The position numbers and the translations under genes are program-made. Shown piece by piece: positions 6,334 to 11,850 of a DNA stretch of 29,340 nt. Source of the stretch: Candidatus Hodarchaeota archaeon. Lineage in GTDB: Archaea; Asgardarchaeota; Heimdallarchaeia; Hodarchaeales; Hodarchaeaceae. Where the stretch lies: contig JAEOTQ010000062.1 in NCBI GenBank assembly GCA_016839785.1, forward strand, positions 1 to 29,340, read 5' to 3'. Positions within the stretch are counted from its first letter, which is position 1; every line of letters starts with the position of its first letter. Below the pieces are notes generated by a model, which saw only the letters and a program-made list of their open reading frames with translations, ran no database searches and was not told the DNA's origin.

Positions 6334-7023
6334 TCACATATCAATATGGATTTCTTCTGTTATAACTTGATCTCCATCCTTAATGAAGATCAATCCATCA
6401 ATTCCATTCCCAGTAGCATTATCTCTTGCAAGAGATGTCTTTAAAGCTGCAATAGCAAGATTTTTCGCCGTCTCTTTGTCGAGATCAGGTTTATATGAAT
6501 TTTCTAATACACCAATGGATAGAAGGGTTCCTGATCCAATTGCAAAGAAATCTTCGTCAGATAAAGACCCATCAGGACCTATAACATAAACATGTGATCC
6601 ACGACGATCGACTCCGGCAACTAAAAGTTGTACCCACCAAGGTTGAAATCTTCGATAACTTCCGTGCATAATAGTGGCAAGTAAACTCCCTGCTACTTTT
6701 ATACTGGGCTTGAAATTGTTTTCAAGCTGATAAAGACGTAATTCACTTCGCAACAAATCCACTAGTGCTTGTGCATCGGATACAGATCCTGCAATGCCAA
6801 TACCAGTGTAATCATTAACCTTATGGACCTTTTTTGCTTGTTTACTAGCGGTAAAACTGCCCATTGATGCACGACGATCAGCGACAACTAAAGCACCATT
6901 TTTAAATTTCAATGCTAGTCCTGTTGTCCCTTTTAATCGATTCATCTGGTCTTGCTGTGAATTATTAAATAAGGGGTTTGTTGGATAATTCACTCTGTAT
7001 TTCTCCTTTATTGTGTTTTTCAT
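6334..7023 (-). CDS. psmB: 20S proteasome beta subunit with propeptide
   Basis: KG|TTG cleavage site with Thr1, Asp17 and Lys33 at the expected spacing, plus AGSVSDAQ, AIGSG and RDNATGNG. An alternative start is GTG 6993 with an AAGGAG SD. Confidence 0.95.
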   Translation of the reverse strand: MKNTIKEKYRVNYPTNPLFNNSQQDQMNRLKGTTGLALKFKNGALVVADRRASMGSFTASKQAKKVHKVNDYTGIGIAGSVSDAQALVDLLRSELRLYQLENNFKPSIKVAGSLLATIMHGSYRRFQPWWVQLLVAGVDRRGSHVYVIGPDGSLSDEDFFAIGSGTLLSIGVLENSYKPDLDKETAKNLAIAALKTSLARDNATGNGIDGLIFIKDGDQVITEEIHIDM

Positions 7024-7219: not shown

Positions 7220-10183
7220 CTAAAATTCCATATAGAGTGCTGGTTTCATTGGTTGTGCCTTTGATGCCTTTTTCAGTGGATCGTTAATTGATTCAGTCTC
7301 AGCAGCGTACACTTCTATCTCACACTCGAAGTGTTGAGATAAATACTGCTCATATCCAGAAATTGCATCTAATTCTTTATCAGTTCCAACAAACTCTTTT
7401 CTAAAAACTTTAGCATCGCCACGAATGACCTTTAGTTCTTTAGCAATATCTTTCATTTTAGGGGTGAACTTCGGATTTGATTTAAGAGTACCCATGACTT
7501 TTCCCATTTTAAAAGATCCTCCTCCTAGTATTTGGGAAACTTCAGCATAAAGGTCTTGTTTCCATACAGGAGCAATAAAAATTATTATCTTTTTAGGAGA
7601 ATCTCGTTTTAGGTCTATAATTGCTTGGATATCTTCTGATAGGTCTTTAATGAAATTAGTTTGAAGCATTAAATCTGCTGCTTCAGCCGATAATTCTAAT
7701 TGAGGCATTTCTCTTAGTGAACAGAACTCAGTTGATCCTAATTTTTCGTTGATTTCTTCACAAACATGTGGAATCATTGGACTGAGAACTACATTCCAAT
7801 GATCGACCATATAGCGAAGAGCTGCGTGCCTTTCCTTCTTAGATATGCCAACAGATGACTTTTGGTAGAATTCAATCTCTCTTAACATAAGATGGAACGC
7901 GTGTGTCACAAAATCTCTTCCATTATACTGATCTAGCTGATTTATGGCTTCCTTTAAATGTGATGTACAAGCAGAAATGAAGGATCGTGTCATAAAAGAT
8001 GATTTATCAGCGTCAAAAGATTTACTTCTAGGATATGAAGTAATTTCATTTATCAACTGCCAAAATTTTCTGAATCTAGTTACAAGGGTGTTTATCCCTT
8101 CATCAGTCCAGTTCAAAACTGTGTCTGCAGATCCAGCAGCAACTAGATACATTCTTGTAACATCGACTGAATACTTCTTTGGCAGAAGCGCGATAGGTAT
8201 GACATTTCCTGCTGATTTCGACATTTTTTCTCCCTCTCGAATCAATAATTCATTTAGGCTGAAACATTTGGGCCAATGTTTCGGAGGGAATATTGCTACG
8301 TGATGAAATATTGCAAATGATAAGTGATTGCCTATATGTGCAATAGCAGTATGTCGTAGATCATTCGGATACCAATAAAGAAATTCTTTTTGCATTTCAT
8401 CTAAAATTTGTGGATTAATACCACTTTTCTTTGAAATTTTCGCTTTTACTCCTTTTTTCAAAAATACGTAATCAAAAACTTCTGGAATCAATTGTTCAGG
8501 ACTAATTTTATTTTTACGAATATGATGAATAATCGTGTAAAAGGCCATGTAAATGACACTGTCGCTCAATGATTCAATTATCCATCCTTGTCCCTTGGTC
8601 AATGGAAATTCCGTTCCTAATCCTCTCTTTCTCACGCAGGGTCTTCGATCCAACCAATCAAAAGTACGTTCGAAGGATTTTCGATATTTCTCAGGAGTAA
8701 TTACCATCTTAGAAAGAGCATCAAATGCTTTTGATTTCCATTTCTTATTACCATAATGTAGAAAGTACTGATCAGGTAATACAGCAACAATGATTTCTCC
8801 ACCACATCTGCAAAAAGCTTTTCTCGAAGTTTCATAAAATACTGCTGCTCTTTTTTCTTCAATTAACGCCTTTGCTACATTATCTTTGGCTTGTTCGACC
8901 TTCTGACCCGCAAATTCCTCTGTAAAGTCCATCATAACGCCATTGTAAAATTCAGAAGAATATATTTCTTGGGTTGCTGTTTCTAGCTTCTCTGTGTCCT
9001 TCTGGTTTTGAACACCTAGCCTTTCAACGATCTCAATCGCAGGAAATTCCCCATAATCTTCAATTGAAATTAATGCAATTGGTTTAATTTTGGCTACCTT
9101 TTCAGCTAAGCCTTCATATTGATCAATCGGTGAAGAATCTTCTTTTAAATCTCTTAATGCTATGTAATCATACGGAGCATGGGCAGGTACTGAGTAAACA
9201 ACCCCTGTTGCATGTTCAGGATCAACAAAAGGCGCTGGAAGGATAGGTAAGGGTCTACCAGGTACGCGTGGAGCATAAACATCTAATCCAATGAAATCGG
9301 ACCCTATTTTTTCCTCTAATTCTTCAATTTCATGATTCTGTTGATGTAATTTTGTAACAGCTTTAGATGAAATTATCCATGTTTCTCCATTTATTCGTAT
9401 TCGTTTGTATTTAGCCTCTGGATGTAACCAAAGATTTGTGGCACCATATATGGTTTCAGGACGAAAAGTTGCTGCAACTAGATAATCTTCCCCTAGTTGA
9501 AATTTTAGCGCAACAAATTCTTGTACCTCAACTTTATTGACATCTGCATCTCTAATATCATCTTCACCAACCGCATTTTTATCAATTTGGCACCAAAGTA
9601 TTGGAAATTCTCCTTGGACAACTAAATTTTGTTCGATCAGATGTTTATACTGCCATTCAATAAATTTGTTATATTCAGGATCTCCAGTTGTAAATTGTCT
9701 ATGAACATCCAATGAATAGCCCATCGCTTTAAAGTCATTAATCATATTCTTAGCAAAATACATAGCAACATTCATAGGTTCTTTGAAAGATTGGACTATT
9801 TTCTTAATCTTCCTTTCGTCACGTTCATAAATGCGTACATAATCTGTATACAATGAGATTGTATGTTTATCTCCCTCTTCTATTTTTGCTGATACAGATA
9901 ATACTGGTGTTCCAGTAATATGGAATGCCATTGGCCAAAGCGTATTATTTCCCAATTGACGTTTATAACGGCAAAACATATCTCCTAGCGTGTAGGTACG
10001 AGCATGCCCTACATGTAATGCTCCTGATGAGTAAGGGTACGGAATTGTTACAAAATATTTCTTTTTCTTATTATCAATTGTCCCTTTGAATATGTCTTTT
10101 TCTGACCATCTATGCTGCCATTTCTGTTCAATTGATCGTAGACTATCGAAAAAATCGCTAATAACACCTTGTGTTTCACTCAA
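7220..10183 (-). CDS. leuS: Leucyl-tRNA synthetase, archaeal/eukaryotic type
   Basis: HVGH and KMSKS class I motifs, FHITGTPV, CP1 editing motifs ATFRPETIYG and GVVYSVPAHAPYDY, C-terminal KAQPMKPALY. TTG start with a GGTG SD. Confidence 0.97.
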   Translation of the reverse strand: MSETQGVISDFFDSLRSIEQKWQHRWSEKDIFKGTIDNKKKKYFVTIPYPYSSGALHVGHARTYTLGDMFCRYKRQLGNNTLWPMAFHITGTPVLSVSAKIEEGDKHTISLYTDYVRIYERDERKIKKIVQSFKEPMNVAMYFAKNMINDFKAMGYSLDVHRQFTTGDPEYNKFIEWQYKHLIEQNLVVQGEFPILWCQIDKNAVGEDDIRDADVNKVEVQEFVALKFQLGEDYLVAATFRPETIYGATNLWLHPEAKYKRIRINGETWIISSKAVTKLHQQNHEIEELEEKIGSDFIGLDVYAPRVPGRPLPILPAPFVDPEHATGVVYSVPAHAPYDYIALRDLKEDSSPIDQYEGLAEKVAKIKPIALISIEDYGEFPAIEIVERLGVQNQKDTEKLETATQEIYSSEFYNGVMMDFTEEFAGQKVEQAKDNVAKALIEEKRAAVFYETSRKAFCRCGGEIIVAVLPDQYFLHYGNKKWKSKAFDALSKMVITPEKYRKSFERTFDWLDRRPCVRKRGLGTEFPLTKGQGWIIESLSDSVIYMAFYTIIHHIRKNKISPEQLIPEVFDYVFLKKGVKAKISKKSGINPQILDEMQKEFLYWYPNDLRHTAIAHIGNHLSFAIFHHVAIFPPKHWPKCFSLNELLIREGEKMSKSAGNVIPIALLPKKYSVDVTRMYLVAAGSADTVLNWTDEGINTLVTRFRKFWQLINEITSYPRSKSFDADKSSFMTRSFISACTSHLKEAINQLDQYNGRDFVTHAFHLMLREIEFYQKSSVGISKKERHAALRYMVDHWNVVLSPMIPHVCEEINEKLGSTEFCSLREMPQLELSAEAADLMLQTNFIKDLSEDIQAIIDLKRDSPKKIIIFIAPVWKQDLYAEVSQILGGGSFKMGKVMGTLKSNPKFTPKMKDIAKELKVIRGDAKVFRKEFVGTDKELDAISGYEQYLSQHFECEIEVYAAETESINDPLKKASKAQPMKPALYMEF

Positions 10184-10290
10184 TGTTTTACACCGTCATT
10201 TGAATTAAATTTTGATTAGAATTAAAGAAAAAACAATGATTTGCAGAGGATACAAAAATAGAGCGTTCTCTAAAGTTTGAAGAATTAGTT

Positions 10291-10317
10291 TTACGGAAGA
10301 AGAACGCAATACCTCAT
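10291..10317 (-). CDS. Putative leuS leader peptide MRYCVLLP
   Basis: atg agg tat tgc gtt ctt ctt ccg taa with a GAGGT SD (10324-10328) 6 nt upstream. It lies between the TATA box and leuS. Confidence 0.6.
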   Translation of the reverse strand: MRYCVLLP

Positions 10318-10347
10318 TGAATTACCTCAAGTCATCCCTTTTTACCC

Positions 10348-10361
10348 TTTTTATATAAAAA
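10348..10361. promoter_or_regulatory. Palindromic TATA box (tttttatataaaaa), likely leuS promoter
   Basis: Matches the archaeal TTTATATA consensus. It predicts a minus-strand TSS near 10330, just before the leader SD. Confidence 0.65.
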
Positions 10362-10502
10362 TTTGGCTATCATCGAAGGACTCAACACTCACCAATAAGT
10401 ATCAGAGCAGTGGGGGGGGTTCAACTGCTGAGGAGAAGGAGAACAATGAAGTCCATCCCTATACGAAATACTCTCTAAAAAAATAGCGAATTAATCTAGA
10501 GA

Positions 10503-11135
10503 TTAATTCGGATGAGAAGGATTATTTTCGCGTATTTGAAGGAAAATATGATGATTTACCATTATTTGGCGAATTAGTTGAATAAATCTTTCAATGGTAT
10601 TAGAATTAACATTGTAGCTCTCAATTTCGATTTCTCTTTCTGAGATGGTAGAAATCAAAATTTTGGAATGATCTTCTACATGTATCCACTCTAAACGTCC
10701 CTTTTTATTTGTCGAATAGTGTCCAACAAATCGATAATACCCAAAATATTTACCTGCTAATCGTTGAACTAAATTTTCAACAGGTATTTCTTTCTCTGAA
10801 GTAATTATCGTAAGAAATCTGTTAAGATCCTTGTTTTGTTCTTGATAATGATGAACAAGCCCCTGATTATCAAAATATTCTCTTATTTTGTCATAGGTTT
10901 CATTACCTAAACCATATCCTCCGTCAGGAGATTGTTGAATTAAGCGATCTTCTTGAAGGCGTTCTAATGCACGAGTCAATTTTTGTTGGTGTACATCTCT
11001 AAGTAAGCGACGAAGACCATTAAAACGAAAGTTGTAGTTTTTCTCCCGTACGGATAACTCCTCTAGTACCGATTCTTCCAATCTCGATAAATATTCTGGG
11101 ACAAAGTCCTCATTATCTTGTCGGTAATCTTCCAA
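10503..11135 (-). CDS. Uncharacterised protein with an N-terminal winged-HTH domain
   Basis: FRFNGLRRLLRDVHQQKLTRALERLQEDRLI...GGYGL wHTH pattern followed by an alpha/beta C-terminal domain. TTG start. Confidence 0.7.
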   Translation of the reverse strand: MEDYRQDNEDFVPEYLSRLEESVLEELSVREKNYNFRFNGLRRLLRDVHQQKLTRALERLQEDRLIQQSPDGGYGLGNETYDKIREYFDNQGLVHHYQEQNKDLNRFLTIITSEKEIPVENLVQRLAGKYFGYYRFVGHYSTNKKGRLEWIHVEDHSKILISTISEREIEIESYNVNSNTIERFIQLIRQIMVNHHIFLQIRENNPSHPN

Positions 11136-11228
11136 AATTACTCACTTCTTTCCTCATCAATTTGTGTATTCAATGATATAAATGGATATAGGTAAACTGT
11201 TTTCTATTTGACAAGTTGCTCTCATTTA

Positions 11229-11813
11229 TTATTCTATGTCCAATTTATGTCTTTTCTCAGTAGTTTTTTGTTTCTTACTGCGTATTTCAAGAACACCATT
11301 ACGGATTGTACTTTTTGTTTGCTTCGGTTCTATTTTCGAGGGCAGATGTATAACTTGATTAATCTCTCTGGTATCAACTTTTCCTTGAAGGGTTAATTCC
11401 AGACCACTTGCACTAACTTCTATACTCAAGCTTTCCTTAGTAAACCCTGGAACCTCTACAAAAATTTTTAAAGAGTCATCTTCATCTAAAATATCCACGA
11501 ACCGATCGGTATTAACTGATTTTGAGGATATTTGAGGACTTTCTGGGCTTTGACTATTGATAGGAAACATATCGAATTGGGGTAAACCTATTTTCTCGCG
11601 ATAGTCGTTTAAATTTCCCCATTGTCTAACCTCCGGTTTATAATCAGTATCTGGCCCGATACGCATTGAATAACCAAATGTTATAGGTCCATCCTCTGCA
11701 TATTCGTTTTTCGATTCGTTCATAGATGTATTGAATTCTTCATTAAATGATCTAAAAATGTCATTTAAGTCAAAATTCCAAAATTCGTCAACAAATCGTC
11801 TTTTTCGATTCAT
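11229..11813 (-). CDS. hsp20: Small heat-shock protein Hsp20 (archaeal type)
   Basis: GPITFGYSMRIGPD..PEVRQWGN N-terminal motif, alpha-crystallin core (VEVPG, LPSKI, NGVLEI) and C-terminal L-D-I. An AGGTGA SD precedes ATG 11813. Confidence 0.93.
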   Translation of the reverse strand: MNRKRRFVDEFWNFDLNDIFRSFNEEFNTSMNESKNEYAEDGPITFGYSMRIGPDTDYKPEVRQWGNLNDYREKIGLPQFDMFPINSQSPESPQISSKSVNTDRFVDILDEDDSLKIFVEVPGFTKESLSIEVSASGLELTLQGKVDTREINQVIHLPSKIEPKQTKSTIRNGVLEIRSKKQKTTEKRHKLDIE

Positions 11814-11850
11814 AATTGTCACCTTTTAATAATTATCTCTGATAGAAATA

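Follow-up and report, generated by a model that had tools for sequence, protein, structure and literature searches.

The leucyl-tRNA synthetase gene (leuS) of the Asgard archaeon Candidatus Hodarchaeota archaeon is preceded by a conserved short open reading frame (ORF), and the 5' end of the leuS mRNA probably carries a translated leader ORF that would act in cis as a sensor of the leucyl-tRNA supply. The gene lies on the minus strand of contig JAEOTQ010000062.1 (assembly GCA_016839785.1), of which a stretch of 29,340 nucleotides (nt) was analysed and is referred to as a whole as the window. The upstream ORF (uORF) in the window encodes the peptide MRYCVLLP and is led by a Shine-Dalgarno sequence (SD). 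The sensor reading follows from the conservation of SD, start codon and ORF with a cognate codon at a fixed position, from a covarying helix that lies over this codon, from the presence of one copy per genome at leuS, and from parallel leaders on other aminoacyl-tRNA synthetase (aaRS) genes. Sensing of the cognate charged tRNA by a translated leader is well supported by these comparisons; that translation takes place, that the ribosome stalls, which way the response goes and that termination is its read-out are what we infer from them. All of the evidence is comparative: the relatives are not independent of each other, and several of the counts follow from our own pattern definitions and from visual inspection.

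Conservation of the leader ORF

A search with the LeuRS N-terminus through the genomes of 41 relatives returned 30 leuS loci, 28 of which have an SD-led short ORF with a Val-Leu pair upstream of the gene. The contigs of the two loci that lack it provide just 76 nt and 165 nt of upstream sequence. An earlier reading of the window, made from its letters and a list of ORFs (the sequence-only reading), had proposed a leucine-sensing leader at this place and had named the absence of the uORF or of its Leu codons from related genomes as the finding that would tell against it; both are carried by these 28 of 30 loci and, moreover, by many other Asgard families.

In the 28 loci and in 19 further Asgard loci the uORF consists of 5-16 codons and lies 90-290 nt before leuS. 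The peptides are variants around one core (MRYCVLLP, MRNCVLLS, MRNYVLP, MGPCVLTA, MSGVL, MKGDYVLLGKQLFY, MGYRVLLKE and MRDSVLRKQK, each ended by a stop codon), and the first codon alternates among ATG, GTG and TTG, always being a start codon. The Leu codon is usually codon 6 and is codon 5, 7 or 8 in seven lineages, so that the changes in length between start and Leu codon are all multiples of three and the frame is kept. Beyond the Leu codon neither sequence nor length is constrained, and an in-frame stop is always present. In all 18 same-genus leaders the SD is an invariant GAGGT, 11-13 nt before the start codon. Other lineages have GGAGG, GGTGA or GGAGA in the same place; their spacing is kept (5-13 nt to the start) while the sequence changes.

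Within one genus two types of LeuRS occur that are 35-40% identical over the first 300 amino acids (aa; loci L025, L026 and L028 versus L001-L017). Both types retain the leader together with the helix described below, which suggests either that the leader travels with the gene or that the gene was replaced behind the leader.

Only 5 of the 1920 upstream regions of the genome, leuS included, combine a TATA box, GAGG and ATG with an ORF no longer than 22 codons that lies 40 nt or more from the gene, and a scan of the whole 4.04-Mb assembly for SD-ATG-(1-5 codons)-GTTCTY yielded no second copy in a promoter-like context; these scans of the window's own genome used crude gene calls (every ORF of 120 aa or more). 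The covariance model R1, which describes the leader, has exactly one match per genome in 30 of the 83 genomes of the class, among them 20 of the 21 other genomes of the genus, and all 25 matches that were located by coordinates, of the 30 in all, lie just upstream of leuS. Judged by these numbers, the uORF arrangement before leuS is not a product of chance.

A covarying helix over the leucine codon

The 18 same-genus leaders were aligned with MAFFT and folded with RNAalifold, and the resulting consensus consists of an 8-bp helix (P2) alone. Its 5' arm (GCGUUCUU) and 3' arm (GAGAACGC) form 7 Watson-Crick pairs and 1 G.U pair in the window, where CUCUAUUUUUG comes next. The 8-bp stem that the sequence-only reading had drawn here is identical to this prediction, and it covaries. 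Pairing is kept in 141 of 144 cells of the alignment (97.9%), and it drops to 30-65% when the partner is slid by 1-3 columns. The outer pair is A-U in 10 leaders, G-C in 6 and G.U in 1, and the second pair is C-G in 16, U-A in 1 and U.G in 1; the remaining changes are one-sided, from U-A to U.G or from C-G to U.G, and are valid in sense-strand RNA only. None of 500 column shuffles matched the observed pairing, the number of double changes or the covariation score. Given that the aligned sequences are related, all of these figures overstate independence; a series of G-C, A-U, U-A and G.U at two positions would nonetheless be hard to get without pairing.

Since the same letters form an inverted repeat (GCGTTCT..AGAACGC) just downstream of the promoter, they could also be looked upon as a DNA operator for a dimeric transcription factor, such as the 210-aa protein encoded upstream, which has a sub-threshold match to an HxlR-like helix-turn-helix domain (PF01638, 16.2 bits versus a cut-off of 20.8). 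However, the half-sites covary rather than being conserved, the spacer of ~30 bp (the loop of P2) is variable and not conserved in sequence, and the upstream gene differs among relatives. In addition, eleven sequence-pair cells are G.U, a combination that would be mismatched in DNA as well as on the opposite strand, so that sense-strand RNA is favoured over an operator. We hold the operator to be extremely unlikely.

Selection on the choice of codons

All 45 leuS leaders that were collected have a CUN codon at the Leu position (CTC 25, CTT 16, CTA 4) and none has UUR; UUA and UUG together constitute 47% of the Leu codons of this genome. The codon before it is always NUU (GUU 37, AUU 4, UUU 3, CUU 1), codon 2 is always AGG or GGG, and the Asp codon in the leaders of other aaRS genes is GAU in 90 of 90 cases. 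The resulting UUCUY is complementary to a downstream GAGAA and to the upstream initiation region that contains GAGG. Such a fixed choice of codons implies selection on the RNA as well as on its reading.

The invariance of RUG-RGG, NUU-CUN and GAU would be in line with a structured RNA whose reader is not the ribosome but another factor, the ORF being incidental: uncharged tRNA(Leu) might bind the CUN as a T-box-like 'specifier', or LeuRS might bind its own leader. The cognate codon has a fixed place in each leader, like that of T-box specifier loops, and P2 is supported as RNA. Nevertheless, starts that vary yet stay start codons, an SD spacing that outlasts changes of the SD itself, insertions between start and Leu codon that always measure 3 nt or multiples thereof and a stop that is always in frame speak against this reading, and so does the unconserved loop of P2. 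Furthermore, a search of positions 9500-11200 on both strands against Rfam, with E-values up to 10, returned no match to a T-box, a tRNA-like element or an amino-acid leader such as the bacterial Leu, Thr, His and Trp leaders; its sole return was PyrG_leader on the opposite strand (10468-10528), at 21.2 bits versus a gathering score of 65. ARAGORN returned nothing for 9900-10700, and no element of the UGGN...NCCA type was identified, although no systematic search was made for one. A structured RNA with an incidental ORF thus appears improbable to us.

Parallel leaders on other synthetase genes

The sequence-only reading had suggested that other aaRS genes be examined as well, and this yielded leaders with cognate codons for Val, Met, Pro, Trp and a second IleRS. 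More specifically, the ValRS leader reads ..S-(W/R/M)-D-(H/R/N)-F-V in 20 of 20 same-genus loci (D.FV is found in 0 of 30 on the reverse strand), the MetRS leader M-W-D-(C/Y)-Q-M in all 21 same-genus loci having upstream sequence, the ProRS leader M-D-(R/H)-(F/L/I)-P in 18 of 19 loci, and the TrpRS leader M-(x)-Y-Q-W in 8 of 8 loci and in 2 of a sister family. The second IleRS has M-W-D-H-E-I and, ~150 nt further on, M-D-x-E-I, with M-R-D-(H/Q)-E-I-I in family f4 (D..I in 19 of 19). Each conserved block terminates in a codon for the enzyme's own amino acid, and of the residues three positions after the Asp only the cognate one is enriched (Ile 19/19, Met 21/29, Pro 18/30; 0 for these residues on the reverse strand). 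In other Asgard lineages the leuS leaders take the form M-R-D-(S/C/T)-(V/I)-L, which places the leuS leader in the same family, M-(W/R)-(D/N)-x-x-cognate.

The window's own genome has a ValRS leader, MVNSWDRFVIPSTSTR, 228 nt before valS (G000:C119, L053) and a TrpRS leader, MYQWQLSLVELHQH, 142 nt before trpS (G000:C129, L349), both ended by a stop codon. At 84.5% completeness, this assembly contains neither ProRS nor the second IleRS, and the MetRS gene lies at a contig edge, with its leader out of view. A scan of the genome for more leaders of the forms M[WR][DN].. or MD[RH].., on the crude gene calls mentioned above, returned none.

We put forward as a serious possibility, somewhat short of probable, that Asgard archaea carry a homologous and programmable family of aaRS leader peptides, M-(W/R)-(D/N)-x-x-cognate with no fixed sequence thereafter, which is retargeted by one codon and would be the archaeal functional counterpart of the T-box. 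The block before the cognate codon would then be a nascent-peptide or RNA module that lengthens the wait at the A site, so that one codon suffices.

In the Val and Trp leaders the initiation region is base-paired with compensatory changes, and that of the Met leader is paired as well (RNAalifold gives 3 invariant pairs). This would fit control of uORF initiation, and hence a uORF that is translated and conserved without any sensing of amino acids, serving constitutive ribosome loading or the damping of translation while the hairpin tunes initiation; the presence of only one or two Leu codons agrees with such a role. It would leave unexplained, however, why a codon for the enzyme's own amino acid closes the conserved block in each of six aaRS leaders, and why conservation stops right after that codon. 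To our mind a uORF of this non-sensing kind is very unlikely.

The second IleRS (loci L365-L383) has its leaders in tandem, the first, MWDHEI.., around -290 to -320, the second, MD(x)(E/Q/K)I.., around -130 to -160. The tandem is present in 9 of 10 same-genus loci; L367 and L370 are without the first leader, and L368 has MDHEIH followed by a stop in that place. By eye, alignments of 2-5 sequences revealed no conserved uORF for SerRS, ThrRS, TyrRS, IleRS type 1, HisRS, AlaRS, class-I LysRS, AspRS, the AsnRS-like enzyme and both types of GluRS. PheRS-alpha has a conserved GAGGT-ATG uORF, MPW(T/N)L.., in 2 of 3 loci (L144 and L145, of genomes G010 and G012); it has no Phe codon and does not fit the cognate-codon rule. 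The uORFs of ArgRS (M[SP]TRIS.. in both loci of one type, ..RFS.. in 2 of the 3 loci of the other) come from too few sequences. A CysRS paralogue has a uORF, MIILTTQISGNNCCC or MIILTTQISGIKYCCCC (L119 and L120, of G012 and G010), in which 3-4 Cys codons immediately precede the stop; the CCC(C) ending is found in 2 of 7 CysRS loci, in genomes that are close relatives, which again are too few sequences.

Taxonomic range

The phylum was sampled with 161 genomes, 136 of which have a LeuRS match, and 40 upstream regions were taken from these to cover 25 families. Of these 40 Asgard leuS upstream regions, 14 match the strict pattern ^MR..[VILF]L; the reverse strand gives 3 of 40, and shuffled sequences give a mean of 0.66 (maximum 3). 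Looser variants add loci, with peptides such as MGYCILLR, MWRIYVLH and MVLRDYVL (all followed by a stop). The leuS leader is found in at least 13 of the 22 Asgard families sampled and is the most widespread of the aaRS leaders; no such uORF was seen in the sampled loci of families f8, f9, f12, f14, f16, f20, f22 and f23, nor in the single f6 locus. The best named match to the LeuRS of the window is from Candidatus Hodarchaeota, with 84% identity over 280 aa.

The strict pattern is present in 4 of 80 LeuRS loci drawn from the Archaea at large, versus 3 of 80 on the reverse strand. Two of the four are from Promethearchaeota and one is from a further archaeon; the last, at -598 and without an SD, is likely a chance match. 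In this 80-locus sample the leader was not found outside the Asgard archaea, the strict pattern providing a lower bound.

A model for the control of leuS

The distances upstream of the uORF have a bearing on where the transcript begins. Of the 18 same-genus leader loci, 13 have the hexamer TT[TA]A[TA]A at a distance of 41-44 nt upstream of the uORF start, as do 3 of the 6 loci of family f3, and some other loci have a TTATAA variant. This constant distance, taken together with that of the SD, places the expected start of transcription at the SD; in the window we infer a start at or just before it, at ~10328-10330.

According to the model that we favour, transcription would start ~25 nt downstream of the TATA box, practically at the SD of the uORF, and a ribosome would read M-R-x-x-(V/I)-L. 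When the charged Leu-tRNA(Leu) that reads CUN is scarce, the ribosome would wait with CUY in the A site and cover the 5' arm of P2 (codons 4-6), so that the leader cannot close. With charged tRNA in plentiful supply, the ribosome would end 2-3 codons later and leave, P2 would form, possibly together with a contact GAGG:CCUC, and RNA polymerase, or the mRNA, would then be halted at the U run, 20-33 nt beyond the helix. A shortage would in this way result in stall-dependent read-through and in more LeuRS, a physiologically sensible outcome that would match the logic of bacterial pheST and of the T-box. As the invariant Leu codon lies inside the 5' arm, a ribosome that is there, or that finishes 2-3 codons later, would prevent closure of the helix.

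Runs of U are enriched behind the leader. A T5 or longer lies within 60 nt after the 3' arm of P2 in 14 of the 18 same-genus leaders, 13 of them having it at 20-33 nt, versus 1024 of 4422 (23%) for T5 in random 60-nt windows of the long upstream regions of the genome. The sequence-only reading had pointed to two U-tracts, both of which are present in the window; the run directly after the stem was not borne out by the relatives (U4 or longer in ~8 of 18, by eye). Other downstream motifs recur as well. CCTC is present in 14 of the 18 same-genus leaders (by eye), with the variants CCTT or TCTC in others, and all 8 leaders of family f3 have a conserved GGUUUCC that is followed within 2-3 nt by U4-7 (by eye) and is complementary to the SD region of that family (GGAAACC, GGAGACC, GGAAAUC). 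For the f3 leaders RNAalifold gives a weak GAGGA:UUCUU helix without covariation, and the alternatives GAGG:UUCUY and GAGG:CCUC exist as sequence, without statistical support. A long-range helix between SD and anti-SD was therefore dropped as a proven helix; CCUC and GGUUUCC were kept as conserved sequence, and the GAGG:CCUC contact as a hypothetical part of the model.

The uORF may also sense Leu-tRNA by stalling and be read out post-transcriptionally, through protection of the 5' end of the mRNA or through altered translation of leuS, without premature termination. This would suit a uORF at the extreme predicted 5' end and a U run that does not abut the helix, with no conserved pair of terminator and antiterminator; termination at a U run needs no hairpin in archaea, and on the erm leaders of Bacillus stalled ribosomes protect the mRNA from 5'-to-3' decay. 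Yet we consider such a read-out rather unlikely. When the uORF was blocked in silico (partition-function folding of 26 leaders), the unpaired probability of the leuS SD and start changed by a mean of 0.007 (5 up, 6 down); the stretch of 90-290 nt that separates the uORF from leuS shows poor conservation; and U runs are enriched behind the leader (14 of 18 versus 23%). The sequestration of the leuS SD over a long range as a means of translational control was rejected, there being no consistent effect in silico.

A number of observations weigh against the model that we favour. The fold of the single leader is no more stable than that of shuffled sequences (z = -0.27; 76 of 200 shuffles are equally stable), so that stability alone was dropped as evidence. 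For the 18 same-genus leaders RNAalifold gave one covarying helix and no conserved antiterminator/terminator pair. The sequence-only reading had added a competing pairing that would bury the start of the leader, CAAUGA..UUGC with GCAA.UCAUUG; it is present in the window, as part of the minimum free energy fold, but is absent even from the closest relatives L002 and L003, with LeuRS proteins 89-91% identical. The U run lies 20-33 nt beyond P2 instead of abutting it, and in 4 of the 18 leaders it is U4 only. An unbiased search for the best helix between the SD and downstream sequence was not significant when compared to shuffles (median shuffle fraction 0.345; 2 of 45 at <=0.05). Most leaders have one or two Leu codons by which control could be exerted, and in view of the strong constraint on the RNA a part of the 'peptide' conservation may be structural. 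In addition, the TrpRS leader has a terminator-like hairpin of 7 bp followed by a U-rich tract, and its Trp codon lies ~9 nt before this hairpin, which is inside the uORF; a stall at Trp would not obviously prevent the hairpin, so that control may run either way in the family as a whole.

The RNA libraries that cover the locus consist of four runs in the form of assembled contigs, which give no starts, ends, strand or level and may include DNA carry-over; stretches that lack coverage, such as 10436-10476 in X4, were left out of the evidence. One contig, X4 (10087-10435), comes from a strain with 94% identity and spans both the leader and the start of leuS. It extends 76 nt upstream of the TATA box and therefore lends no support to a start at the SD, which likewise counts against the model. 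X4 has 21 differences from the window, none of which falls in 10273-10348 (76 nt, with SD, uORF and the start of the P2 loop); this restates the conservation.

The leader in the window and its neighbourhood

The features of the leader are listed in Table 1. On re-reading of the minus strand, the coordinates and sequence statements of the sequence-only reading were all correct. The stop of the uORF and the TTG of leuS (10183) are 107 nt apart. That TTG is supported as the start of the gene by the N-terminus MSE(Q/T)Q.., which is conserved in 17 same-genus orthologues with ATG, GTG or TTG, and by the in-frame stop 2-4 codons upstream of the start in these orthologues.

Table 1. Features of the leuS leader in the window (positions count from the first letter of the window)
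Feature	Position	Strand	Basis or remark
leuS, archaeal leucine--tRNA ligase, 987 aa, TTG start	7220..10183	-	TIGR00395, 880 bits versus cut-off 648.5
TATA-like TTTATATA, candidate promoter of leader and leuS	10352..10359	-	sequence; putative promoter function
Shine-Dalgarno GAGGT of the uORF	10323..10327	-	6-nt spacer to ATG
Leader uORF MRYCVLLP, ATG AGG TAT TGC GTT CTT CTT CCG TAA	10291..10317	-	sequence
Tandem Leu codons CUU CUU, codons 6 (invariant) and 7	10297..10302	-	
Helix P2, 5' arm GCGUUCUU, overlapping codons 4-6	10300..10307	-	RNAalifold consensus
Helix P2, 3' arm GAGAACGC	10263..10270	-	RNAalifold consensus
First U run (U5) after P2	10254..10258	-	sequence; position not conserved in relatives
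CCUC, anti-SD-like motif, 13 nt after P2	10246..10249	-	aligned leaders, by eye
Second U run UUUUUUCUUU, candidate termination site	10224..10233	-	putative termination
SD of leuS itself, GGUG	10191..10194	-	GGTGA conserved before the start in relatives

A mini-ORF, ATG ACT TGA (10327-10335, minus strand), overlaps the SD at or before the predicted transcript start. In relatives the site reads (A/T/G)TGAGGTAA, a start-like triplet with a stop two codons on. Further upstream, at 10487-10510 on the minus strand, a 10-bp hairpin is situated right after the stop of the gene for the 210-aa protein (10503-11135, minus strand) and is followed by CTATTTTTTT, with a T run to ~10478. The hairpin is likely the terminator of that gene, which makes an independent leuS promoter plausible. 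Between it and the TATA box there is a second short ORF, MDFIVLLLLSS plus stop (10421-10456, minus strand), in which GTT is followed by CTC CTT CTC CTC; since the homologous stretch in L003 has no start codon, this ORF is probably not a conserved leader. The other neighbours are a proteasome subunit downstream of leuS (6334-7023, minus strand) and a protein of the Hsp20 family (11229-11822, minus strand). Sixteen tRNA genes were found in the incomplete assembly, among them tRNA-Leu(GAG).

Comparison with known systems

Leader-peptide attenuation and T-boxes are the textbook ways in which bacteria match the expression of aaRS and amino-acid genes to the level of charged tRNA, and we know of no archaeal equivalent of either. 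Full-text literature searches returned nothing on archaeal aaRS leader peptides, as far as titles and the openings of abstracts tell.

Well-known attenuators of the leader-peptide type are those of the leu operon and of pheST in E. coli. The leuS leader resembles these in having a short, SD-led ORF at the 5' end, cognate codons, a helix that overlaps these codons and a downstream U run, and in the homeostatic logic that would apply to an aaRS gene, as in pheST. It differs from them in being archaeal, namely Asgard, and in having one or two control codons at a fixed position after M-(W/R)-(D/N)-x-x. Moreover, no conserved, mutually exclusive hairpins were found in it, its U run does not abut the helix, and it matches no Rfam family. 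The archaeal termination machinery also differs from the bacterial one.

T-box riboswitches regulate the aaRS genes of Firmicutes, leuS included, and bind uncharged tRNA directly without being translated. What they would have in common with the Asgard leaders is the control of aaRS genes one by one, the display of one cognate codon by the leader and the diversification of the family by a change of that codon. In contrast, the Asgard leaders conserve SD, start codon, frame and stop, and have no T-box match.

In erm and cat leader peptides, which sense antibiotics, the stalled ribosome frees the SD of the next gene (translational attenuation) and stabilises the mRNA. There, as proposed for leuS, a ribosome that has paused in a short 5' ORF remodels a hairpin in which the ORF is contained; the SD of leuS, however, is 100-280 nt away, and the unchanged accessibility of this SD upon blocking of the uORF in silico argues against translational attenuation of the erm type.

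A bacterial system with short ORFs at the very 5' end has been described for mycobacteria, where, as outlined in a preprint, leaderless polycysteine ORFs are cysteine-responsive attenuators (bioRxiv 10.1101/834739). By that outline, cognate codons in such an ORF couple its translation to downstream expression, as proposed here, and the uORF of the CysRS paralogue that ends in CCC(C) in two relatives is a further likeness. The mycobacterial ORFs as outlined differ in being bacterial and leaderless, in having runs of Cys codons and in preceding genes of cysteine metabolism instead of aaRS genes.

Regulatory uORFs are also familiar from eukaryotes, to which the Asgard archaea are the closest prokaryotic relatives; examples are those of GCN4 and ATF4 and the fungal arginine attenuator peptide. 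The link between a uORF and amino-acid supply would be shared, and the conserved block before the sensing position is reminiscent of arrest peptides. The leuS leader differs in that it is SD-dependent and has a cognate codon for sensing, while the main ORF has an SD of its own; there is no sign of reinitiation or of the sensing of free amino acids.

The contribution made here is a set of testable elements on six or more aaRS genes, with a fixed position of the cognate codon, one covarying helix and a defined taxonomic range. If true, the model would be direct evidence that Asgard archaea couple transcription to translation for regulation, and it would also provide a natural design for a single-codon sensor. 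Should the read-out be a different one, for instance mRNA stability or a response in the reversed direction, then this would itself be a new mode of control by a uORF. The logic of the proposed system would be that of the bacterial leader-peptide attenuators and, functionally, that of the T-boxes; the differences lie in the domain of life, the single fixed codon after a conserved block, and a leader family that is common to several aaRS genes.

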